In this document: positions 9,185 through 52,372 of the stretch, in pieces
Layout of the letters: each line of letters starts with the position of its first letter
Position numbering within the stretch: the stretch's first letter is position 1
Notes under the pieces: model-generated
Seen by the model: only the letters and a program-made list of their open reading frames with translations
What the model was told of the DNA's origin: nothing
Databases searched by the model: none
Translations under genes and position numbers: made by a program
Assembly (NCBI GenBank): GCA_010093745.1
Contig: MU005977.1
Coordinates: forward strand, 1 to 64,000
Source of the DNA: Piedraia hortae CBS 480.64
Taxonomy: Eukaryota
Length of the DNA stretch: 64,000 bases
Reading direction: 5' to 3'

Positions 9185-9365
9185 TATTATCACTGTTGTG
9201 GACAGAGGAAACAGCGATGAAAGAAAGACAACGCGACTGCCCGCCCAAGCCGGCGGGCGGAACTATGTACAAGAAACAACTAATCTATCAGCGACAACAA
9301 TGTCGATCATGCGATCGACATACCCCGAGGCACCGGCAAGGATTGACACTGGCCACCGCCTCGTA
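9185..9365 (+). repeat. Dispersed ~180-bp structured repeat, copy 1
   Basis: Closely matches the reverse complement of 50147-50320. Contains hairpins GCCCGCC..GGCGGGC and ATGTCGATC-N4-GATCGACAT. Confidence 0.85.
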
Positions 9366-35954: not shown

Positions 35955-36309
35955 CAAGATATCCGCTCCTGAGTTGTCGTGTACATCTGTAAACGTGTTC
36001 TAGCGTTCGCTCTATGTACTTGTTCTTCTAGCCTGTCATTTGCCCTGTTTCCTTTCAAATTATCATGTTCCAAGTCGGTCCTTCCCACGCACGCGGTGGA
36101 CAAGATTAGCTTACATAGTGCTCTCGCGCGACAACAATTAACATTTAACATGCGATAACTCTACCAATATGGCAGTCAAACACTTAAAAAAAGGCTCAAT
36201 AGATGGAGCTGCTGCTGCAGATCCTGATGCGCTCTTTCTGCATCGTTACGTTCGATCAATGGCCTACTAAACGAAGTTTTCGTGAGAATTTTTAAACATG
36301 CCTAGAGTA

Positions 36310-36490
36310 TGCCGATTTGGTGCTACAAGAAGACCAAAACTCTTCACGCGGAGGAACCGCGGACTGAGACGGTAATATCCAGCAAAGAAAATGCAGACAT
36401 GGCTTAAAAATCGATCCGATTACTCCGGCCTCCCAAACCTCTCACTAATCGAGAAAGCCTGGGAAAATTTGAAGCCGCCCATGAGGAAAG
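36310..36490 (+). mobile_element. Tc1/mariner transposase remnant
   Basis: DLVLQEDQNSSRG..HGLK.. then, after a frameshift, PNLSLIEKAWENLK, resembling the DDE tail SPDLNPIENxWxxLK. Confidence 0.6.
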
Positions 36491-36811
36491 AACTACATGG
36501 GATCAAATCTCTGGTCGAAGAAGTTGTCACTGGTGGGTCTTTTGCTGAATTCGATTCACAAATGCTGCTCTGCAATGCCAACATGTCTCTCGGCCAGTAT
36601 TGATGCTGACAGGAGCATCACGAAGTATTAACATTCCAAACCATGACCAAGATGTTCTATCTCTTGGCATGTGAAGTGCTATTGAAAACCTCCCGATTAT
36701 GAAAACCCAGAAGTCATGATGGTTGAAAGGAATCAAGCAATCGAGGATCAGTAAAAGAACTCCAAAGACACGAAGGTAAGCTACATGATTACTCGCCCTT
36801 ATATCCGTCTT

Positions 36812-38395: not shown

Positions 38396-41300
38396 TTAAC
38401 AGCGAGCTGGGCCCCGATCCTGTCCCGCTTTGGCACCTTTCTTTCGACCGGAGTCTGGCCTCCCCGGATTGCTATCGGCAACTGAACCTTTTGTACGTCC
38501 CGCAGTAGTATGATCAGTTGGGTGAATGAATGTACCGTTCGCACGCTGTTGATTTCGCACATCTCCCTTCCCATCGGACTTGATTTTGGTTCCAGCAGGA
38601 GAATCGTTAACTTGAGTTGGAGCACTACGGCAAGCTGGGTGAGCGGCGGTGCCATCCGCGTGCTGTTGCGTTCGAACGTTATTCTCCCCACCAAATCCAG
38701 TTTCACTCTGGTTTGTGCCGGTAGCAGCTTTTCCACCCACATTTGGAGCGGTAGAAGCATCAGTGGAAGTTGCGACTCTTGCCCCACTCTGTACCTGAAC
38801 TCCTCCCGTCTGATCAGACTCGCCCACATATGTATCTTGCGCTTTCCACCACACAAGGGGCGAACTCTTTCTGGCATTTTGGGCCGGACCTTTAGCTGAT
38901 GTGGCGGCATAGACATATTTACGATGAGCAGATTGTGTGCTCGCGTCCGCACCAGGTTGGATTTGACCTAACCCTTTACGGCCAGGCCTGTTCAAGTCTG
39001 TGGACGCGCCATTTTGACGATTCCATCTTTTTTTCCGGTTTCTGCTTTCATCCGCTTTCGCAGGAGCAGCCTCAATCGCTGGACTCGTACGTGCGCTCTT
39101 TTGAAGTTGGCATCCTTCCTCCTGGTCAGATCTGAGCATAGTCCCATTTATGATTTCAGTATTCGTTCCGTTTTGCACTTGGGCTCCTTTGTTCTGACCG
39201 AATTTGCTCCCGTTCGCAGCAACAGAATGGCCAACAAAAATATGAACGGCAATGTCATCCGGACTACTTCGAGCTTGACCCTTTTCCTCCTGATCAGATT
39301 TGCTTAACTCTGCATCGTTGCCTCCAGAAAACCCAATGGCGCCAAACGTAATGCCACTTGGAAGATGGACCACTCCTTTCTGAACCAGCCTCTTCCCGTT
39401 TGCAGTCACAGCAGTCACAGCAGCTCTCTTCGAGGAAGTAATAGCATTATGAGAAGAATCAGCTTCTTTACCGCTGCGAGCTCGAGGTGAAAGTTCTTCC
39501 CTCCGGGTATTTGCTCCAAAGATGCGTGGAAACCCGCCTCCCGAGTAAATCTTTTCGCGAATTCGATTTAAGGACTCTTCTTTTGGGTCAGCATTCGCAT
39601 TGGCTCTTGCAGCATTAGCTCTACCATAATCAGGGGGATATGCACGCTGAGGATAGACTCCCGTACCCCAAGTCGACTGGGTGATATCAGTTTGGACTCC
39701 ATCTTGCAACTCAGATGTGCTTACTTTGGCATTCGCACTATACTGGGAGTAAGAATCATAAGGAAAGTGAGAATTTTCTTGATGAACAGGCCTTGTTCCA
39801 TCAGTGCCCCATTCAGCAGCGGCGTTAGGAGCAGCGTGCCCATGAATTGGAGGATATACATTTCTAGTATACCCGTCCATATAGTGGGCGTACGGCTGAT
39901 TGATGTCAGTCTGTGCTCCATCCTGCAAGTCTGATGCACTTACGTATGGATAAGCACTATTTCCGTGGCAAACATTTCTGAAAATGCGGGGCGGTCTATT
40001 ATCATGTGTTCTTATAACATTAGCGGCGGTAATTGCATTAGGAGCAGCAACACCCGCTCCAAGATGGTCTCGTGGATAGCCAGTCCCAGTATACCCTTGT
40101 ATATAATGGGAGTACGCCTGATTGACGTAAGTTTGGGCTCTACTGCGCAGGTCGGATATATTTACGTTGGATAAAGCAGGAACTCTGTGGTATGCATTCC
40201 AGAGAGAGTGAGAATACCCGTCCTGCTGATTGCCCGCGGCGGCGGTAGCACCAAGAGCGGCAGGCTCATGATGTGGAGGGTATGCATCCCCATTATACCG
40301 ACTCTGTGCGATGTCAACCAAAGCTCCGTTCTGCAAATGAGATGGGCTTACACATGGATAAGCAGTATTCGCGGGGTTTCCATGCCCGAGAAAACGAGAA
40401 GGATACTCGTTTCGATCAGTGTCGGCATCAGGAGCAGCAACATCTGCACTGGAAAGGACTTGCTGGTACCCACCCCCGGTATAACCTTCCGCATTCCGAG
40501 TCGACTGGTTCATGTCAACCTGAGATCTGCTATGCTGATCAAAATTTCTCGTATCCACGGACGCAACATCCGCATGAGCAAGAGGCAGCGCAGCTTTAGT
40601 ATCGCTTTGAAGCAGTGAAGTTTTATCGTTAGCAGACTGTGTAACATTCCCACCCGTGGTAGGAGGAGCAGGAGGGAGTGAAGGGACCGGGCTATGATCA
40701 CATCCACGAGGGTGGCGGAAGGAACTCAAGTCAGAAGCAGACCGGTAATCATAACGTGGATCCCCGCCAGAATCGCACTTGTTTTCGTTTGCTTCGTGGG
40801 ATTGATGTTCTCTCTGCCAATGTCCCCTCTGACAAACAAATTCCTGGCCGTACGCAGTAGCAGCATCATACGGAGGGGCAGGATCAGGCGCGGCTTTAGC
40901 ACTCGTGCCGTTTTGAAGGCGATAATTCCCTTTGCAATCAGAACTTTTCATACCTGAGTTTACTCTGGCAGAAGTTGATGGAGGATTAGCATCCGCAGGA
41001 CACTTCTCAGAAAGAGTCGCGGCGTCACCCAGAGCAACACCCGTCCCCTGCTGGCTCTGAACGCGTTGCACTGTATCAAATTCCTTTGCATCCTGTAGCA
41101 AGCGATCGAGCTCAATCTTGCGGCTCTTTTGGGCTTGTGACTGAGTAAGAACAGGTGCAGCGTTGTTATTCGTGATGTCTCGAAGGTGTGCATTTTTTTC
41201 GCGATTAGGCTTTTTTATATCACCGCCTGCGTCAGCAAGAGTGGGAGAAGGAGTAGCGTCTGCAGCAAGTTTTTCAGGAGTGGAAGAAGCTTTAACTGGA

Positions 41301-42352
41301 GTAACATTCCTGGTCCATTGACTTTGAGCATATTGCTCCTGGCCCGAAATTCTCGCTTGCTGGAACGGTTCATCAATATCAAGAGTGAGGCTTTCTTGAG
41401 CTGGGGGTTCATTTCGCAAATCAGTACCAGTATGCGTAGTGTTTGCACCTGTGCTGCTTCGAGGCTGATAGTTCTCCTTCTGAACAGGTTTCGTTCCCTC
41501 CTGGTACGTGACAACAGGAGTCGCAGGAGCAGCGTCTGCTGGATGCTCATCAAATGAAATAGGAATTCCCCTATCATGGCTTGACTTTCCCCCAAGAGTA
41601 GACTGGTTTTCACCAACAAACAGCCATTCATTATCAATGTTGGTGTCGGTTTGATTTGGAGTCGTTTCCCGAGCAGATTGGCTGCTTTCGGCAAACAGCC
41701 GTTCAAGATCGATCTTGGTGCCACTATGGCTCGGGGTTGACTTCGCATTCGGATCCCATTTTGCGATTCCCCTAAGGGGAGAAGACTCTGCAGCAATCTC
41801 AATGTCTGCAGGTTGATCGTTCCCTTCATTCTCACCCACAGAGTGACTTCTGTCCTCCCCAGGCAAAGCATATTTATCAGCATCCTTATCTCCGACCAAA
41901 TCTCGAAATCTCTGAACAAGCCTCTCCCCAAGTCCCTTCAACCTATCATCATCTTCATATACCCAGAATCCAGCCACGCCGCTTGCCACCTCGAGCATAA
42001 TAAACTTCTTTTGGGGATCAAAATCCACTCCACTCACGGCGGCTAGGGGCAAGATCAAATTACTGAGGCTCTTGCGGTTCAAAACGACGGTTGTGTATCC
42101 CGATGAGGTTTCCCCCGCAGGGATCGTATCATTGCCGACGTTCTTGGCACTTCCTTTAGTCGAACAAAGAAACAGTGCACCCTCGCATTCAGCGGAATCC
42201 CAAGCCTGGCCCTCGGAAGAGAAAGAATACAGGACCACAAAAGGGGCGATCATTATGATTTCGTCGATCGAGGGGACGATTCGGCGAAGGACCCGGAGGT
42301 TGAGACTTTTGGTGTCCGATTCTGCGTTGGGGTTGGGGTTTTCGGGCGGCAT
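38396..42352 (-). CDS. Dcp1-like decapping cofactor (N-terminal EVH1 domain) with a very long low-complexity tail, 1318 aa
   Basis: LNLRVLRR.VPSIDEII.IAPFVVLYSF..QAWDS..CEGALFLC..YTTVVLNRKSLSNL..FIML..GFWVY matches the Dcp1 EVH1 pattern. Uninterrupted ORF. Confidence 0.85.
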   Translation of the reverse strand: MPPENPNPNAESDTKSLNLRVLRRIVPSIDEIIMIAPFVVLYSFSSEGQAWDSAECEGALFLCSTKGSAKNVGNDTIPAGETSSGYTTVVLNRKSLSNLILPLAAVSGVDFDPQKKFIMLEVASGVAGFWVYEDDDRLKGLGERLVQRFRDLVGDKDADKYALPGEDRSHSVGENEGNDQPADIEIAAESSPLRGIAKWDPNAKSTPSHSGTKIDLERLFAESSQSARETTPNQTDTNIDNEWLFVGENQSTLGGKSSHDRGIPISFDEHPADAAPATPVVTYQEGTKPVQKENYQPRSSTGANTTHTGTDLRNEPPAQESLTLDIDEPFQQARISGQEQYAQSQWTRNVTPVKASSTPEKLAADATPSPTLADAGGDIKKPNREKNAHLRDITNNNAAPVLTQSQAQKSRKIELDRLLQDAKEFDTVQRVQSQQGTGVALGDAATLSEKCPADANPPSTSARVNSGMKSSDCKGNYRLQNGTSAKAAPDPAPPYDAATAYGQEFVCQRGHWQREHQSHEANENKCDSGGDPRYDYRSASDLSSFRHPRGCDHSPVPSLPPAPPTTGGNVTQSANDKTSLLQSDTKAALPLAHADVASVDTRNFDQHSRSQVDMNQSTRNAEGYTGGGYQQVLSSADVAAPDADTDRNEYPSRFLGHGNPANTAYPCVSPSHLQNGALVDIAQSRYNGDAYPPHHEPAALGATAAAGNQQDGYSHSLWNAYHRVPALSNVNISDLRSRAQTYVNQAYSHYIQGYTGTGYPRDHLGAGVAAPNAITAANVIRTHDNRPPRIFRNVCHGNSAYPYVSASDLQDGAQTDINQPYAHYMDGYTRNVYPPIHGHAAPNAAAEWGTDGTRPVHQENSHFPYDSYSQYSANAKVSTSELQDGVQTDITQSTWGTGVYPQRAYPPDYGRANAARANANADPKEESLNRIREKIYSGGGFPRIFGANTRREELSPRARSGKEADSSHNAITSSKRAAVTAVTANGKRLVQKGVVHLPSGITFGAIGFSGGNDAELSKSDQEEKGQARSSPDDIAVHIFVGHSVAANGSKFGQNKGAQVQNGTNTEIINGTMLRSDQEEGCQLQKSARTSPAIEAAPAKADESRNRKKRWNRQNGASTDLNRPGRKGLGQIQPGADASTQSAHRKYVYAATSAKGPAQNARKSSPLVWWKAQDTYVGESDQTGGVQVQSGARVATSTDASTAPNVGGKAATGTNQSETGFGGENNVRTQQHADGTAAHPACRSAPTQVNDSPAGTKIKSDGKGDVRNQQRANGTFIHPTDHTTAGRTKGSVADSNPGRPDSGRKKGAKAGQDRGPARC

Positions 42353-43194
42353 TTCAGTTTGAACTGGGGATTTGGGTGGATCGGTGGTTAGGTTGGTTAG
42401 TTGGTTGGGTCGATGTGTTGGTGGCTGGGGTATCGATGGTTAATGTTTCAATGATAATTCGTGTGATGGCTGAATTTTGATAGATGAGTGTCGATGGTTG
42501 CGTGTTGCGATCATTGTCTGTCTGACTAAGTGATGACTATAGGATTGCACAGATCCAAGTGAAGAAGTCACATGGTAGCTGTTGCCTTCTCAGAATTAGA
42601 AATAAGAGGGAAGCAATTTTGGGAAATAGAGAACCGGAAAAGTATACAGTGCGCAAAGACTGCTCCACACATCATTGGCCACTTCATTACCAGCATACAG
42701 CCCAAGATTCTTTCTAACGTTGTCTAATGTCATGGTTCCCTCAAACATGTCCTTTGATGGCTTTGTGATTTCTCAGTCGATGCTTTGACTGAAGTCATAG
42801 AATCGCGCTTTGGCAGCATAAAATCCTTATCGTTAACGGCTTCGTACTCAATGCTTACTTCAAGTTACCCCTTTCCAATGCTGACGCCGGAGATGTTGAC
42901 AGGGTACGAGCTGTGTGTTCATCGAGCAAATCTTTGAGCTGGCTGATAAAGTGAAAAGAGCGTGGCCGTCTTGCAGCAAGACGTGGACCGTCTGGCAGTG
43001 TAGTTCGGATTATCATCCTTGCTGTCAATCAGCAGACTATGTATACAGATTACTCCTTGTTGAAAAATATTCTAGATATGACAATGTTATCCCACTGACT
43101 TTATCAATCAACCCCTTCCATGCTACTCTCACGCTTGGCTTCCCGCCAACCGATCCATCTTCTCTCTCAGGAGACCTTCGAGCCAAGGCGGCGA

Positions 43195-43657
43195 CTAGAG
43201 CAGAACTGGGACAACCCTCATGAGATTTTTCGGTTTCTTTCCTTCACAGTACGATACCGATGATAGTACGTTGCACCAAGTCCTAATAAGGGCCAGGAGG
43301 GTCCTAAGATCCATAATAGGGAGGCAGGCCAGTTGTTCGACTACTTCATGGGTCCTCAGATCTTTGGCCAGCGGCAGACAGATTGTCACAGTTGCTTCCC
43401 CTCCTTCCCTCCCAATGAGAATCATGCTCAGCATAAGAGGGCGCCGGAAATGCTCATTGTCTGGAGGGCACAGCATGAGCAGTTCAAAAGCAAAGCCGAG
43501 ATGTGTAAGCGGAGGTATCTTGGAAACAAATCCCTGGATGGTAACTTGAGATGATTGTTGAGAAACGGAGGCTCCCCCGATGGCCTTGTTATAAGGCTTC
43601 CTGACGGATTCTTCCAGGTAGTCCGTCGCCACATGCCAAAAGTGGCGAGGTATTGCA
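43195..43657 (-). pseudogene. Unidentified coding relic cut at its 5' end by an LTR
   Basis: A ~150-codon open frame runs directly out of the LTR terminus at 43658. No motif recognised. Confidence 0.3.
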
Positions 43658-43880
43658 TGTTGGATCCAAGTATCGCCGCTAGCGCGTATGCGGGGCACTT
43701 CCATAGCAAGTCAGCAATACCTCCTACACTTCCAGCTGCACCCTAGGTTTTTTCCTTCACAGAGTTTTTCCCTCAGGGTCATACTATATGTGACATGGCG
43801 AATGCGCCCTGCTAGTGTATGACGTGACGTCACCGGCCCACCGGTACAGAATAAATATTTTGTACCGGTGGGCCGGTGGC
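43658..43880 (+). mobile_element. Truncated family A LTR ending in a fold-back inversion
   Basis: Starts TGTTGGATCC and matches family A for ~195 bp, then reads back as an inverted copy (43831-43878). Confidence 0.88.
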
Positions 43881-43883
43881 GAC

Positions 43884-44175
43884 TGAAGAAATATGGAGGT
43901 GGTGAACTAGCGCAGCGTCATGTGCAGTATGGATTTCGGATTATTCGGGTTAGGAAAAGGTGTGTGAGGCACATATATGCGTGGCTGGGTGTGTGTATGT
44001 AGGTGTTGACGTGAAGTGGTGAGGTGAAGTGCGAAAATTCACCTCACACTAAACCAGGCCTAGCCGCATTTACCGAAACCACGTCACCGAGCACGCACCG
44101 AGCATGAATGGCACCGTGCTTCGTCCCAGGGGAAACTTCCTCCTATGGAGGTAAAAACCCTGAAAGGCATCGACA
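43884..44175 (-). mobile_element. Probable solo LTR, family D
   Basis: TG...CA bounded ~290-bp segment holding the same U-rich-loop hairpin (44127-44162). Single copy; TSD ambiguous (GCGAC/TCGAC if it ends at 44169). Confidence 0.45.
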
Positions 44176-44605
44176 TCTAAGCTCGCAGTTGCGACCTGGC
44201 TGCATACTATATGAGAGTGTTTACAGTCTCACACTTGCTTCTACGCATTTGTGTTGCTTTAATGTCGAATGATGATGGTTAATGAGATCCAATCGCGACT
44301 GCAACGAAACTCGCCTCAAAATTAGTTATCGGATAATTTTATCTATTTCGTGCTAGTGATAACCTACAAGTATGAGATATACTGCAATGGGTAGGCCATT
44401 CAAATTCTTATCGAGTGGCATCACTATGCAATTGTATTTCCCCTATGAATTGTTTGTGCCGGACATGTTGTCTAACTGGTGCTAAGTAGTTGGGAAGGTG
44501 TGTAGGGCTCCATTAGTGACATTGATTCTTCCGTTGTTCATCATTACAGTCTTGAGGATGCAAGACCTTAAATCCAACCACTCACAAGCATATGTGACAA
44601 TGCTG

Positions 44606-44979
44606 TGTTGGCATGAAGTCTCGTTGCTATCAGTGTACGATGCCACTGCGCGACACCTCTTACACCAGCAGCTGCACCCTAGGTTTTGTCCTCACAGAGG
44701 TTTCCCTCAGGGTCATGTCGCATGCGACATGACCAATGCGTCCTGCTACTGTTTGAGGTGAGTCAGGGAGTAAGACTGCATGCTGACAGTCTTACTGCAT
44801 GTATAACCTCTTGCTTACGGTCATACAATTGATGACTCTTCATACGAGGCTACGCACGGGTCTTCCAGCCCAGAATATATTCTCTGATGTTCCCTCGAAG
44901 ATATACTTGTATTCACTCATAAAACACATCTCTACTTTCCATCCATCGTTCTCACTCATACATACTATCTGTCTTTTCA
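44606..44979 (+). mobile_element. Solo LTR, family B
   Basis: TGTTGGCA...TTTTCA. TSD TGCTG at 44601-44605 and 44980-44984. Inverted copy at 51898-52268. Confidence 0.92.
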
Positions 44980-45946
44980 TGCTGCACTATGTTCAACGAT
45001 AGCCCCTGATCGTTATGACCCCAAGAACGCGTTTTCGCACAAGCTGCGGCATTCTGTGGCAAATGCAATCGCGACCACTCGAAAAAATAATGGTATGGAT
45101 CATCAGACCATGCACTTCGCGGAAAAGTAGTTTATAACTATGTTGGACTGTTGTAAGAGATGCTATGTATTCGCGTTGAAAGTGTTGCGCAAAAGTGTGC
45201 ACGCTATGGGGAACACTTATGGTGCGCTTCGCAAAAGAACCACAGGGTGCTCATGTGTCGCGGTGGATAAAAACTTCAACGACGCTTTAGACTTCTATCG
45301 GATATTATTCACCCAGAACAGGATTGCTATCCCCCATTTCTTAGTTCACTAAGCCTTCTTTAGTGGCCATGAAATGAATGTATTATAAGATATAGATAGT
45401 TTAGTGTCTTGAAGTCACGGCAGAACCTCGGCTGGTGAATGCGCGCATGGGGTTGGGGACCAATAAGCGAGCATATGCTTTCTCTCGCCCTTGCGGAACC
45501 TTCTCCTTCACTTGAAGCATAAAGCTCCCCGCTTTGGTTACTTGTCTTTTGACGCGTTATGTTTTGTTGTGGTTGGTCCCCATCTCCTGGACGAGGATTC
45601 CCACCTTGCAGCCGCGCCACTCACAGATATTGGGAATTTTAATTCTTGTCGTTCTCCATATTTCCGGGAATCAACGCACGCTCACTTCTAACTAGAGCGT
45701 GTGCAAGGCTTTGCATAAATAATGATGATGATGATTATGATCAAGCCCGTTTCATTTGTGTGAAATCCCAGGTCTTCATTTTCAATCGTTCGACTTCCTG
45801 ATTCATGAACTTCAAGAGTCAGTGTTCCTGTCATTCTGCTAGTGCTAACCCCAAGTACATATATTCCTCACTTTCTCTCTTCTTTTTTTTTTCTCCTATA
45901 TGCCTCGCCAGCGCATATTTAGGATTAGGAAAAAAAACATTTCAAC

Positions 45947-46746
45947 ATGCATCATTTTGATCCCACGGCTTTAACCTTCTTGCCCCACTCCGGGATCCCT
46001 TCCCCATCACCTTTACCATTCGACTCATTCCCGAATCTTGACCAGTGCATGAAAGCGCTTCTCGAAGAACACAGCCTTCGCACAGAAGATGTCAAGATCC
46101 TCTCCGCCGAAAATCTCGGCCTGGAAATTGAAAGGATTTGTTGGGCCTATCAGGATGATGTCGAGCCAGCAGCGAGAGAGGCGGTTACGATCTCCCAAGG
46201 CCCAACCTGCAGTCATTCTTTCACTCGGTCTTGGACCAACTGGCTCGGCCAAGACTCAAGGCGTCCGATGTAAAGGCAGTCTTAGCATCGTTCAAAGCTG
46301 CCAGGGTAAGCGCGCCATTACATGGCATAGTCTTGTTAGACCCCACTCTAAAGCATGTCTTGCTGGTCAAAGGTTATTGAAAGTCGGCGAAATGGATGTT
46401 TCCAGGTGGGAAACTGGAGCCTGGGGAGACAGACATTCAGTGCGCGGTGCGAGAAACTCTTGAAGAAACAAGGCTCAACTTGTTCGACATCGGCCTTGTA
46501 AGGTCCATGAGCGTTCCATTCCTGGATGCGTGCCTGCAAGGCAAACATGTCCGACACTTCCTCGTGCCAGGAATCTCCCTAAGCACGAACTTTGCACCCA
46601 TGACATGCAATGAAATTTCGGAAATACGCTGGTTTCGGGTTTCAGAGCTGGCGCAAAACTGCCAAAGCCAAAAGACCAGTATTTTTTGGGGCGTGGCTCC
46701 CTTCATTGGGCGCCTGAAGGGCTGGATTGGCTCTGGATTCCATTGA
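45947..46746 (+). pseudogene. Dcp2-like mRNA decapping enzyme core (Box A + Nudix) with one frameshift and one TGA
   Basis: Box A-like LEIERICWAYQDD. Frameshift in the GA run at ~46172-46181. HGIVLLDPTLKHVLLVKGY*KSAKWMFP (TGA 46378-46380). Nudix box GKLEPGETDIQCAVRETLEET. Dcp2-type FAPMTCNEISEIRWF and FWGVAPFIGRLKGWI. Confidence 0.85.
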
Positions 46747-47520: not shown

Positions 47521-49631
47521 GAATACATCCTTATGACATGAGAAGGTCGCGAGCCACAAAGGAGTCCCAAGATTCGTCTCGATCAAGAAACCTCTGCATA
47601 CCAGACCCAACCTGTGCTGAAGTACTAGATTAACAGGCCTACCGCCCACTGGGATATCTGGGTATCGTTTCGAGAGTGCATTTCGGCATATACAGTCCCC
47701 TTATTGGACTCAAGATTGGACTCAAGAACAGTTGGGTTGCATTCAGGCTCGTATCCATCAGCCTATTAGTACTTTCATTAGATGCATCTCAATGATGTCG
47801 CCAACATTCTACTTCCCAGCATGGTTCCTGCACCCTTGGGCTCCCTCTCATGTTTGTTCCACAGCATGGCAGCTTTTCGGGCTAGTTTTCATCAATCCAA
47901 GGCCATTGTCTCCCTCCAAATATACCCCTTCGTTTGTCTTGGTTCCAATGCCTTCCCGGGCTACGCATTCATCAGCTTCAGAGCTGATGATATCGTGGTG
48001 TCTCCTTGGATACTCAAGCAATATAACTGAAGCGCCGAGTCGACTTCTGGTTTTCTTTACCGGAACTGACGCAAAGCTCCAAGAGCCCTAAAAACATCGG
48101 TCTACTGGGTTGTGGCGTATTTCAGACAACTAATAAAATGCACCCGGTCACCATCATTTGACATCTCCATGTGTAAAGGGCAAGGTGCTCGCGAATCTTC
48201 TGGTCGATCAAATTTTGATCACAACCTCTGCATTGCGAGCATACCGTTTTTGGAATTTTCTTGGAAATCCTTGGTTTCTACTTTTTAACGGGATTCTGAG
48301 TTTGCCTTTCATGTCGCGTTAAATTTGTCATGAAGTATGCGCTCGCAAAAGACGTCAAGGCACACCAGAAGCGGGCGAAAATGGGAGTAGAGAAGGAGAT
48401 GAGAAGGGAAGCCCCGATTCTCGTATTGAGTAATATCGTTACATCGGATAAGAAGTCTGATAAGGAAGCGGATGGTGCTGCTACAGACGTTAGCGTTCCC
48501 AGAAGACTCGAAAGCCTGACCACGATCGTCCTAGTCCCTCTTCCCAACCCTAAGCCCCTAGACCGCTTCCTTTCCTTCCTTAAAGAGGGCTCTGCTGATT
48601 GATAGAGTTGCTTCACCCGAAAATGGCGGAATGGTTTAGACTGGACGCATTATGCCATCGAGTTAGGATGTTAATGGCGGTGTGCGCTTGTCAGCGTCGC
48701 TTATCTAGAAAATGAGGTGGAGGAGGAGGAGGAGTCTTGGCAAAACTCTCGATGTGACATTTCAAACTTGCATAAACTTTAATCACACATTCCCATATGC
48801 TTGTTTCCGACTGATAAGCAACGTAGTAGTAGGCTTAATTAACCGAGCATGTGCTCCCAATGTTGAAGCCGACTATGCTTCCATTTGGATCACGTTACTG
48901 CCGCCATTCTCCAAACGCCACACCGTGGTCGTCGCTTGTCTTCTTAAGATCTGCCAACTTCACCGAAGTACTGTCTTCGTGTCGATTGCTCATGGCCTTT
49001 AGAAATTAGCTGCGTTATGATGACTTCGTGGCGCACATCATTAATTTTCTTGTCCCGCATTTTCCGCTGATGCTTGGCACGATTGCAGCGCCATTTTACC
49101 ACCGCAATTATGACAGCAGCAACCGACATGAGTAGCAACTCAACGGCAGACTCTTTGGTTGAGCCAGCGGCGGAGTTTATCAGCAGAGAGTTGGTAGCAA
49201 GATGGGAGGTAAGCGGAGTCGATGGGTCGATCAATGCTGACACTTCCAGAGTCATTTCAGGCTCTGAAAACGGCTCCATGTATCTGGCTGTCATTTCCTA
49301 CCATAAGTTTCCCGCACATTTGCAGACTATGGAGGTTTCAAGGTGTTTAATGAGCTCACCCCTCGTGTTCTGTGAACTATTCCTACGAGGCTTGACGTAT
49401 GGGTCAGTTGTGGCGCTCGTTTCAATGCCCAGTCAACCATCTCCTACTCTTCATGTCGTCTGGGGAAAATTCAAGGCGACATGGCAGGCTTGGGTAATGT
49501 TGGAATCGTTACCAATGCTCGGGCTGGCGGCCGGTCTTGGTTCTTCGTCGTCCGAGGATGCTCTCTACAATGTCGTCGTGATAAATATCCTTTTCAGGCC
49601 TTTGGCTACAGCCTAAACGTCGCCTATCTAT

Positions 49632-49993
49632 TGTAGATATTTAGCTCTCGTGGGTGAGAGTGCACAGCGACCCGAAGAGGGCGGAGCGATAGACGGAATC
49701 AGGGACAGGAAAGATGTAGATGTATGTAAGTCAAAATACCAGTTGCAGTATGGTAGTGTGAATGACTATGTGTCTCAATAAGGGGACGTCAGAATGAAAA
49801 TTCTGTACCGGTGGGCCGGTGACGTCACGTCGTACACTAGCGGGGCGTATTCACCATGTCACATATGACATGACCCTCAGGGAAAACCTCTGAGAGGGAC
49901 AAACCTAGGGTGCAGCCGGTAGTGTAGGAGGTATCGCTGACTTGCTATGCAAGTGCCCTGCATACGCGCTAGCGGCGATGCTTGAATCCAACA
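49632..49993 (-). mobile_element. Solo LTR, family A
   Basis: TG...CA ends. TSD TCTAT at 49627-49631 and 49994-49998. Confidence 0.92.
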
Positions 49994-50146
49994 TCTATTG
50001 TAGTAGCCTACGAATGAATAGTCGGACGCCCCAGAAGATACTGCTTTTACAGATCTGAGAACCTTGGACCATTTCTGATAATTTAAACCAGTGAATCACG
50101 ACGATCTTGCCTTTCGTTTTGACCGCGAAGTCCATGTCTAAGGGAA

Positions 50147-50320
50147 TGTACGAGGCAGCGGCTAATGTCGATCCTTGCCGGTGCCTCGGTATGTCGATCG
50201 TATGATCGACATTGTAGTCGCTGATAGATTAGTTGTTTTTGTACATAGTTCCGCCCGCCGGCTCGGGCGGGCAGTTCTGCCTTTCTTTCATCGCTGTTTC
50301 CTGTCAACACCAGTGATAGA
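50147..50320 (-). repeat. Dispersed ~180-bp structured repeat, copy 2
   Basis: Reverse complement of 9185-9365. Confidence 0.85.
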
Positions 50321-51190
50321 ATACCCGATATGAGTAAGTATCCGACCGACTTTTCTCGCAAATGCGCCTAAGCGTGGGATAAAGGAGAGGATCCCCTCAA
50401 TCGCTGGTATGTTGTTGCCTATTCACACACCTGTTTATCGTCACACAAACCTAGAGAATTAATGCCCCGGGTCGACATTAAGCGACTTGAAGGTCCTCTT
50501 CCTTGGAAAGTTTTATTATCTGGCGGCTACCCTCTTCAGTTGGTAGCATGCATCGACTAAAATTCAATTTTAGACATCATCTGGTGGGAAACACGTGACG
50601 AATAATGTTCAGTTTTGTTCTCTATTCAATGATTGCAATAGACGATATGAAAGAGTAACAGCAGAAGAATCGAGTTCATCTTGGAATCGCATAAGTCTTT
50701 TGACGTTGATGATTGCGTCAATTTAGGACATTGAACAGCACAATTGTGAATCCTTGAACGAGACTACACGGTCACCTTGATCGGCGGAACGTATAAGTTT
50801 CAACAGCGCATGAACTTGCCGCCACTTGTTTGGTTGGCAACTAGTTGCTGCCAGTTTTGACGTTCGGGTAAGCAGGGTTATTTTCTGGGGAAAAAGGGCG
50901 TACCAGCTTCCTTTTTAACGCTAAGATGAGTCCTTATGAGATGTGTAAGACATGCCATGCCTTTGTCTGGCTTCTTTGGATAGTTAAATTCGGTTGGTGC
51001 GACGATTTTGTCCATTCGCGACGATCTCCAGTTTCCCAAATGGCTACAATCTGATTACACGCTGCTCACAAATGGCTGCGGGGATGGCCTTCTACAATCC
51101 CAGTCACGTTATGCTTCCTTCAATATCTTTCCAGGGCGCAACACATTAACTCATCGCCATCCCCACCGCAACCCTCACGCAACTCTCTTT

Positions 51191-52372
51191 CTACCACGTT
51201 TCATTCTCTTCTTCGTCCTGAATATCAACCTCCATAATCAACCTCGCTTCCTCTTCCTGCGCCGCAGTCGGCGGCAATCTAATCCCCTCCTCCCTCTCCC
51301 TCAACTGCATCAACACAACCATAATGATAACTTGCCACACAACAACCGCAAGTGTAACGACAATAATCCACCCCGCAACCGAACGATGTTCTCTCCTCCA
51401 CGGGCCAAGTCATTCTCTGCCCTCTCTCTAGGGAAACATCACAACACAGGCATCACTACCGTGGCTTCGGTCTGGAAATGGCCAGACCATATCTCGCGGG
51501 ATGGTGAGACCACAACACAAAAACGCATCCTGCACAGTGCGGATAGCAGCCGCATTCCTGTCGTGGAAGAGCTCTTGCCAGCGCTCGCGAATTAAGCAGT
51601 CGCTGCCGTGGATTTTTTTTGGCCCGCTAAGGGTGATTATAACGGTTTCATAGTTGAGTAAGATGGCGAAGAGGACGGCGTCGCGGATGAAGCGGCGGGT
51701 GGGAAGCTCACTTGCTTCGCTGCTTCGTGATCTGCAATGGGGAGTGGTTCGTATGATGGTCCTATTCAGGGCTACAATAACTGAGGCGAGGAAGGGAAAG
51801 ATGATTGATAGCGCGGGAAGAGCTCGGGAAATGACTAAAGAGTTGAGTGGAGTTTTTACAGAGGGTAGGAGCAGAGAAGGCTAGAGGAGGAATGAAGTGA
51901 AAAACAGATGGTATGTGTGGATGAGACGATGGATGGAGAGTAGAGATGTGTGTATGAGTGAATACAAGTGTATCTACGTGAGGACATCAGAGACTATATC
52001 CTGGGCTGGAAGGCCCGTGCGTAGCCTCGTATGAAGAGTCATCAACCGTATGACCGCAAGCAAGTGGTCATACATGCAGTAAGACCGTCAGCATGCAGCC
52101 TTACTCCATGACTCACCTCAAACAGTAGCAGGGCGCATTCACCATGTCGCATGCAACATGACCCTGAGGGAAACCTCTGTGAGGACAAAACCTAGGGTGC
52201 AGCTGCTGGTGTAAGAGGTGTCGCGCAGTGGCGTTGTACACTGATAGCAACGAGACTTCATGTTGGCATGAAGTACTTGATTCAGAGTCAGTGAGTATAT
52301 ACTCTATGGTTATCGACGACCAACTGCTATGCTCAAGACGAGAATGATCAGCTGGGGTTTGGAAAGAGCCAT
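51191..52372 (-). pseudogene. Tetraspanin Tsp3-like pseudogene split by a solo LTR (not in the ORF track)
   Basis: Manual translation gives CLIRERWQELFHDRNAAAIRTVQDAFLCCGLTIPRDMVWPFPDRSHGSDAC..*..*LGPWRRE followed by a TM helix. CCG motif present; two in-frame stops. Putative exon 1 MALSKPQLIILVLSI lies beyond the LTR. Confidence 0.8.
51898..52268 (-). mobile_element. Solo LTR, family B, with a terminal micro-inversion
   Basis: Reverse complement of 44606-44979. TSD TGAAG at 51893-51897 and 52269-52273. Confidence 0.9.

Follow-up and report, generated by a model that had tools for sequence, protein, structure and literature searches.

Linked, diverged extra copies of Dcp1 and Dcp2 in the fungus Piedraia hortae: a candidate second decapping module with a broken Dcp2 half

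A linked pair of extra decapping genes

The first 64 kb of contig C21 (MU005977.1; this whole stretch of 64,000 nucleotides is referred to here as the window) in the 16.9 Mb assembly of the fungus Piedraia hortae CBS 480.64 (GCA_010093745.1) harbours a Dcp1-like gene on the minus strand and a Dcp2-like gene on the plus strand, which diverge head-to-head from a common spacer. The reading preferred here, to which we give a probability of about one half, is that these are linked, fast-evolved extra copies which once formed a second, specialised decapping module whose Dcp2 half is now broken; the break is likely to be recent. The divergent arrangement with a ~3.6-kb spacer was proposed from the DNA letters alone, and both frames, together with a spacer of 3,594 bases between the two starts (42353..45946), are confirmed.

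Both members of the pair are extra copies, since intact canonical DCP1 and DCP2 genes are found elsewhere in the genome. Canonical DCP2, on contig C6, is intronless and encodes 793 residues with five LxxL[LF] motifs in its tail, whilst canonical DCP1, on contig C1 (1350-1869 of stretch L001), carries one intron before its C-terminal leucine motif. The latter gene is itself unusually short (161 residues against a median of 299), with the leucine motif placed on a second exon of 13 codons. The canonical genes sit on different contigs, each more than 100 kb from the contig ends, and the pair is thus not the copy of a single block. Neither gene of the pair is therefore the orthologue, as the original prediction of lineage-specific paralogues had anticipated; nor are the additional Dcp2 copies scattered, both non-canonical Dcp2 loci lying within 8 kb of the Dcp1-like gene.

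The genome contains at least three loci of the Dcp1 family (two recovered by domain family, the third by a protein query) and at least three of the Dcp2 family. The third Dcp1 locus is a relic on contig C13 (C13:232774-233031), just beyond a myosin-like gene, which carries three stops and shares an insertion with the Dcp1-like gene of the window. Judged by these sequences, each side of the pair is a small family with births and deaths. The Dcp1-like domain is closest to the genome's own Dcp1, at 98.8 bits, the next match among 1.84 billion representatives scoring 78.9, and the two group with support of 97/98 in a 45-row tree built from the best-scoring rows, leaving out the C13 relic, one long row and lower matches.

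The Dcp1-like gene

The Dcp1-like gene is a single open frame of 1,318 residues with no evident intron (38396..42352, minus strand), and a contig from a DNA sequencing run that spans 36608-43699 matches it with 0 differences. Its N-terminal EVH1 domain (41942..42310, minus strand) is identified by Pfam and by alignment: the DCP1 family (PF06058) matches residues 15-137 with an E-value of 3e-24 and 85.4 bits, against a curated cut-off of 22.5. The domain keeps the residue at each of the 11 positions that never vary in a 36-row alignment, the query included. The NR loop (N88, R89), the role of which is taken from PMC4005699, is retained together with Y38, W47 and W126 (alignment numbering).

Beyond this domain the frame stays open for a further ~1,150 residues, in agreement with the length first claimed for the extension, and the protein is far longer than the 149 listed homologues, which range from 111 to 653 residues (median 299). 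The tail contains exactly two LxxL[LF] motifs, resembling the helical leucine-rich motif (HLM), at residues 213-220 (41693..41716, minus strand) and 412-419 (41096..41119, minus strand), and both are copies of the C-terminal motif of canonical Dcp1. This likeness marks the tail as an expansion of a Dcp1 feature and not a transfer from Dcp2. The earlier suggestion that the scaffold had moved from Dcp2 to Dcp1 is accordingly not sustained, the tail showing no significant similarity to that of canonical Dcp2 (best E-value 0.48). A motif of the same loose pattern, counted with no shuffle control, occurs beyond residue 170 in 108 of 148 other fungal Dcp1 matches. Further along, the low-complexity tail carries four degenerate Tyr-rich repeats (39578..40369, minus strand; residues ~662-925, 62-74 residues apart); five of the six unit pairs score above all 1,000 shuffles and the sixth is equalled by eight of them. 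No Pfam family, trimerisation domain, ESM Atlas match or second copy in the genome was found for the tail. Searches for homologues of comparable length scored none of 2,092 candidates of 724-2,307 residues, and a search at 87-279 residues returned only the locus's own partial model, both searches relying on word matches, which have little power with so divergent a query.

The Dcp1-like gene looks alive. Both lesions at the locus fall in the 800-base Dcp2-like gene and none in the 3,954 bases of its neighbour, for which p = 0.028 if the two were equally free to decay. In a sequencing run guessed to be RNA, low-depth contigs cover parts of the Dcp1-like frame (one of them 377 bases, 38424-38800, 0 differences) and the flanking genes, with no contig over the Dcp2-like relic; such contigs can neither rank genes nor show absence, and nothing is drawn from them.

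The Dcp2-like relics

The Dcp2-like gene (45947..46746, plus strand) is a pseudogene of 266 codons, with an X at each of its two breaks. It starts with an ATG at 45947 and follows the Box A frame to ~46180, where the frame switches (46181-46182); the subsequent Nudix frame is interrupted by a TGA at 46378 and ends at 46744-46746. The relic matches a profile built from 120 fungal Dcp2 cores with an E-value of 2e-44, and the top 14 matches of a PDB search are all Dcp2, with that of Schizosaccharomyces pombe the best. The Box A piece taken alone receives no score from PF05026 and matches the fungal profile weakly (E-value 0.003), with the W, Y and D of its W-x-Y-x-D motif kept. Decay on the Dcp2 side, already recognised in the original prediction, thus consists of one frameshift and one in-frame stop, set against an intact Dcp1-like frame. 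A contig from the DNA run covers both lesions with 0 differences, which argues against an assembly error, the run possibly deriving from the assembly's own sample instead of an independent strain. Recoding by editing, read-through or an intron was considered and rejected, as it would have to act twice independently, at lesions that both fall inside aligned coding sequence.

The relic has diverged to 37% identity, and what it has kept is unevenly distributed. It agrees at 43 of 85 near-invariant columns, at 17 of 63 and 16 of 51 columns of two intermediate classes, and at 5 of 36 variable columns. The equivalents of S. pombe W43 and D47, the cap-binding Trp and Asp, are retained; in the Nudix domain the Lys before the box, R153, E154, E157, E158 and the downstream E210 (canonical numbering) are kept, and G160 is changed. 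A pseudogene drifting to 37% identity would hold many stops, so that the presence of only two lesions argues against long decay; together with the retained key residues, this indicates a gene that worked for long and broke late.

The frame ends seven codons past the last conserved Trp, with no long tail bearing leucine-rich motifs. The description of a copy that stops right after the catalytic core (~265 codons) therefore holds for the sequence as it stands, whilst its extension to the living gene is only suggested; a core-only protein is nevertheless likely, given where the frame ends.

A second Dcp2-like relic, missed in the original prediction, lies 3.3 kb from the first (49995..50147, minus strand). 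It comprises the last 50 codons of a Nudix domain, ends at the last conserved Trp, and is 50% identical to the first relic, with which it has a deletion and a Tyr-to-Trp change in common. The two relics terminate close to the final Nudix helix, and their downstream sequences have nothing in common, the comparison being equalled by 54 of 300 shuffles. The second relic is cut upstream by a small repeat (50149-50318), and a solo long terminal repeat (LTR) with a 5-base target duplication (49632..49993, minus strand) is inserted at its end. The small repeat is dispersed, with another copy at 9236-9365 and a further one in stretch L144; it has a G+C-rich terminal hairpin and no match in Rfam. No poly(A) remnant was seen at the Dcp2-like copies, canonical DCP2 itself being intronless, and no signature of repeat-induced point mutation was found (TpA/ApT 0.35-0.74).

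Did the two genes act together?

Chance linkage is unlikely. By a rough estimate, an extra Dcp2 would fall within 3.6 kb of one or other extra Dcp1 with a probability of 0.0009 genome-wide, or of 0.017 if only 5% of the genome receives copies; these figures exclude orientation and are weakened by the pair having been picked out post hoc from the many paralogue pairs that could have been noticed. Under the preferred reading of a former decapping module, separate duplications in this lineage would have given rise to a Dcp1 copy and a Dcp2 copy, which would have settled in an island prone to capturing host DNA and come to share a divergent spacer; shared expression from that spacer, or a joint function, may then have kept them together. 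The Dcp2 copy, with its observed complement of residues, would have stayed a cap hydrolase. The tail of Dcp2 is described as autoinhibiting the enzyme (bioRxiv 10.1101/266718) and as targeting it (PMC9170289), and a core-only copy would be without both the autoinhibition and the targeting motifs. With no tail on the Dcp2 copy, targeting would shift to the tail of the Dcp1-like protein, which would probably bind Edc3/Scd6-type partners through its leucine motifs and favour condensates through its repeats. After the death of its partner, the Dcp1-like protein would at most activate canonical Dcp2 in an alternative way or serve it as an adaptor.

Several observations weigh against this reading. 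The Arg-Phe of the Dcp1-binding helix (S. pombe R18-F19) is lost from the Dcp2-like relic in both possible registers, being Glu-His ungapped and Lys-Ala gapped; the D14 equivalent is kept only in the gapped register of this first helix, and the equivalent of R33 is lost too. D14 and R18 are given as predicted Dcp1 contacts, with mutations of the human equivalents strongly cutting binding (PMC4005699), and R33A is reported to abolish activation by Edc1 (PMC5861098); a literature search brought up no data on R18A/F19A. The loss of Dcp1-contact residues whilst the Dcp1-like side stays canonical is an asymmetry unlike tight co-evolution, and a physical complex of the two proteins, as far as can be judged from their residues, is uncertain. 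The Dcp2-like gene may also have had a tail that decayed, instead of having been core-only from the start. The grouping of the Dcp1-like protein with canonical Dcp1 unites two long branches, for which attraction is possible. On the Dcp2 side, origin from this lineage's own Dcp2 is neither established nor rejected: the relic forms a saturated branch with no supported sister in a 36-row tree, for which 34 of 120 homologues were picked for spread, and grouping with canonical Dcp2 is not rejected by the approximately unbiased (AU) test (p = 0.20). The closest Dcp2 homologues are those of Oleoguttula, Teratosphaeria, Hortaea and relatives. A four-residue insertion of canonical Dcp2, also present in four of the ten homologues shown, is apparently found in the relic, but the frameshift falls inside it. 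The island has demonstrably captured unrelated host DNA. Finally, no recurrence of the pair was found: there is no Dcp2 trace in 30 kb around the Dcp1-like relic on C13, no second linked pair was found in this genome, and Dcp2 is absent from the flanks of all 80 metagenome Dcp1 loci inspected (38 with at least 4.5 kb upstream), a weak test as these are ordinary Dcp1 genes, many of them redundant. No duplicated or linked fungal Dcp1 or Dcp2 was found in literature searches, which missed most subscription papers, and nothing on such a pair was found in the literature on the genome of this species.

The asymmetry at the interface fits a different account, unlikely on balance yet the strongest of the alternatives, in which the two genes were co-regulated but formed no complex. 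Here the Dcp2-like protein would have been a Dcp1-independent cap hydrolase, in the manner of viral decappers, sharing a stage-specific bidirectional promoter with a Dcp1-like protein that served canonical Dcp2. The loss of the R18, F19 and R33 equivalents, hence of a predicted Dcp1 contact (PMC4005699) and of a residue needed for Edc1 activation (PMC5861098), alongside retention of W43, D47 and the Nudix box, fits such an enzyme, as do the canonical NR loop and first helix of the Dcp1-like protein and the survival of its frame beyond that of its neighbour. Against this, the helix can be placed in either of two registers, so that its alignment is uncertain; a privately rebuilt interface would leave the same picture; and the shared promoter is putative.

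Somewhat less probable again is coincidence, in which paralogues of gene-expression factors arise often in this genome and an island that collects duplicates took in copies of Dcp1 and Dcp2 that never acted together. The habits of the island speak for it, in that it has joined copies of unrelated host DNA and holds a repeat (36089-36664) with eight other copies in the genome, as does the lack of any recurring pair. In addition, the extra TBP genes of this genome (see below) are solitary or beside another TBP gene, with LTRs nearby and no partner factor recognised within ~7 kb. This account has to accommodate an estimated chance of 0.001-0.02 before orientation is counted, tempered by the post hoc choice of the pair, and the presence here of both Dcp2-like copies, which have diverged to 50% and so mark the association as old. 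A selfish or mobile origin is improbable. The pair would then have been carried by a transposon or virus-like element that captures genes, or have been a poison-antidote locus (an unregulated decapper as the poison, the Dcp1-like protein as the antidote) defused by loss of the poison. Tight linkage, fast divergence, the turnover of copies and an enzyme lost earlier than its regulator would suit such an origin, by analogy with toxin-antidote systems. Against it, no relative of either protein was found in viral contigs by short-pattern searches that reach close relatives only; the pair is not enclosed by a transposase, recombinase or terminal repeats; both genes are single-copy at the DNA level; and an intact antidote is not expected long after the poison has gone.

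The surrounding island and its repeats

The pair lies in an island of ~17 kb of LTRs and fragments, flanked by an MMS22-family gene and a BING4/WD40 gene, both assigned by Pfam. Its capture of host DNA is seen at 48332..49362, where two fragments that are 93% copies of sequences on contigs C27 and C20 are joined end-to-end at an exact junction at 48662, the C27 part deriving from a Brix-domain coding sequence. The decayed repeat at 36089-36664 has its eight other genomic matches at 71-83% identity and no Pfam match, its translation recalling a Tc1/mariner transposase by eye only. A third decapping factor was sought in the island without a credible Pfam match among 45 short frames scanned (of 59 listed), and a PDB search with two island frames gave chance matches only. 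Cys-rich, membrane-protein-like frames at 51000-51900 (minus strand) resemble a fungal tetraspanin by eye, for which Pfam gives no match. Within the spacer, a unique frame of 153 codons (43198-43656, minus strand) is interrupted by a partial LTR and has no Pfam or credible PDB match.

Three LTR-type insertions were originally described in the spacer, of which two stand. The first is the partial LTR (43657..43881, plus strand), which is 87-91% identical to other copies; the second, of a related family, is a young and complete solo LTR bounded by TG...CA with a 5-base target duplication (44606..44979, plus strand). Of 488 candidate copies of the latter, 40 were scored, and 39 other copies among them are 95-98% identical to it. 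The third (44019..44179) is an old dispersed repeat, 70-74% identical to other copies, a putative LTR at most and unsupported as such. Beside the solo LTR, the stretch at 44990-45320 runs between TGTT and AACA; the matches listed include no further copy of it, and no target duplication was detected around it.

Both spacer LTRs are predicted to form an ENE-like U-rich hairpin (43741-43778 and 44677-44712, respectively), and folding of 9 distinct LTR variants, with no shuffle control, predicts a U-rich internal-loop hairpin, common to both families, in 7 of them. ENE motifs of plant and fungal LTR elements, which have a U-rich internal loop between two short helices, are reported to protect against deadenylation (PMC12501189). 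Rfam gives no ENE family match here at E-values up to 1, and only three sub-threshold matches overall. The hairpins proposed in the original prediction are thus present as folds, whilst the link then drawn to the decapping pair, or to a host-transposon conflict over RNA stability, falls away: the LTRs occur genome-wide and are far younger than the genes, which have diverged to ~40%, and consequently say nothing specific about the pair. In comparison with known ENE elements nothing new is seen here, and neither the age nor the distribution of the predicted hairpins ties them to the decapping genes.

Other paralogues of gene-expression factors

The decapping genes are not the only gene-expression factors with diverged copies in this genome. 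TBP gives 16 half-domain matches, corresponding to eight loci: the canonical gene on contig C31 and seven extra ones (C30:37860-38369; C24:219882-220388; C20:73998-74498; C20:75396-75908; C20:142782-143276; C4:364991-365512; C55:58113-58610). Six of the extra loci are open and encode proteins 38-56% identical to the canonical one, and the seventh has stops; two of those on C20 are convergent and 900 bases apart, and LTRs lie near all six of the TBP regions fetched. XRN is present at its usual two loci only. Nothing was found in the literature searched on TBP expansions in fungi or on a paralogue-based gene-expression set in this group.

In the light of the extra TBP loci, the decapping pair no longer reads as an isolated oddity but probably belongs to a wider collection of diverged gene-expression paralogues spread over the genome. 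Animal germline paralogues of the gene-expression machinery are described as forming alternative, germline-specific complexes (PMC11535153). By analogy, and as a distinctly tentative proposal, the fungal copies might constitute a parallel expression line built from paralogues and running from promoter to decay, with TBP-like proteins and a Dcp1-like/Dcp2-like decapping arm whose enzyme is being lost; such a line might serve transposon control or a particular stage, for instance sexual development.

Comparison with known systems

A duplicated, linked fungal decapping pair of this kind is not found in the literature searched; it represents a known machine in a single case, with its enzyme half dead in this genome and its functions putative. 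Within these limits it bears on how decapping enzymes are directed, as the accepted view is that fungi possess a single Dcp1-Dcp2 enzyme and that its selectivity stems from the Dcp2 tail (PMC9170289). A core-only Dcp2 with a hugely extended Dcp1 would be a natural test of whether targeting can pass from enzyme to activator. Likewise, with its seven extra TBP loci, so small a fungal genome would offer an uncommonly simple system for the study of paralogue-based gene expression.

The closest parallel to the long Dcp1-like tail is the metazoan layout, in which a long Dcp1 extension carries a helical leucine-rich motif (PMC3877753). The likeness is one of analogy only: here there is no trimerisation domain, and the motif derives from the fungal Dcp1's own tail. 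Animals are not known to have a linked Dcp2 paralogue. Paralogy on the Dcp1 side has a counterpart in humans, where DCP1a and DCP1b are two Dcp1 paralogues with specific roles (PMC11530239). The animal germline paralogues (tTAFs, tPAF, TBPL2, Moonshiner and RNA exporters; PMC11535153) resemble the fungal set in being diverged extra copies of factors that are normally single-copy, here TBP, Dcp1 and Dcp2; this again is analogy, with no homology beyond the core families, and the fungal set is known from genes alone.

The nearest structural reference is the fungal Dcp1-Dcp2 holoenzyme itself (S. pombe, PDB 2qkm and 5j3t; Kluyveromyces lactis, 6am0), with which the pair has in common the EVH1 domain with its NR loop, a Nudix domain preceded by a putative regulatory domain, the cap-binding Trp and Asp and the catalytic Glu. 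It departs from that enzyme in consisting of extra, linked copies, in a Dcp2 that ends at the core, is broken and lacks the R18, F19 and R33 equivalents, and in a Dcp1 of 1,318 residues, differences that make the pair a natural test of how the Dcp1-Dcp2 interface can be rebuilt.

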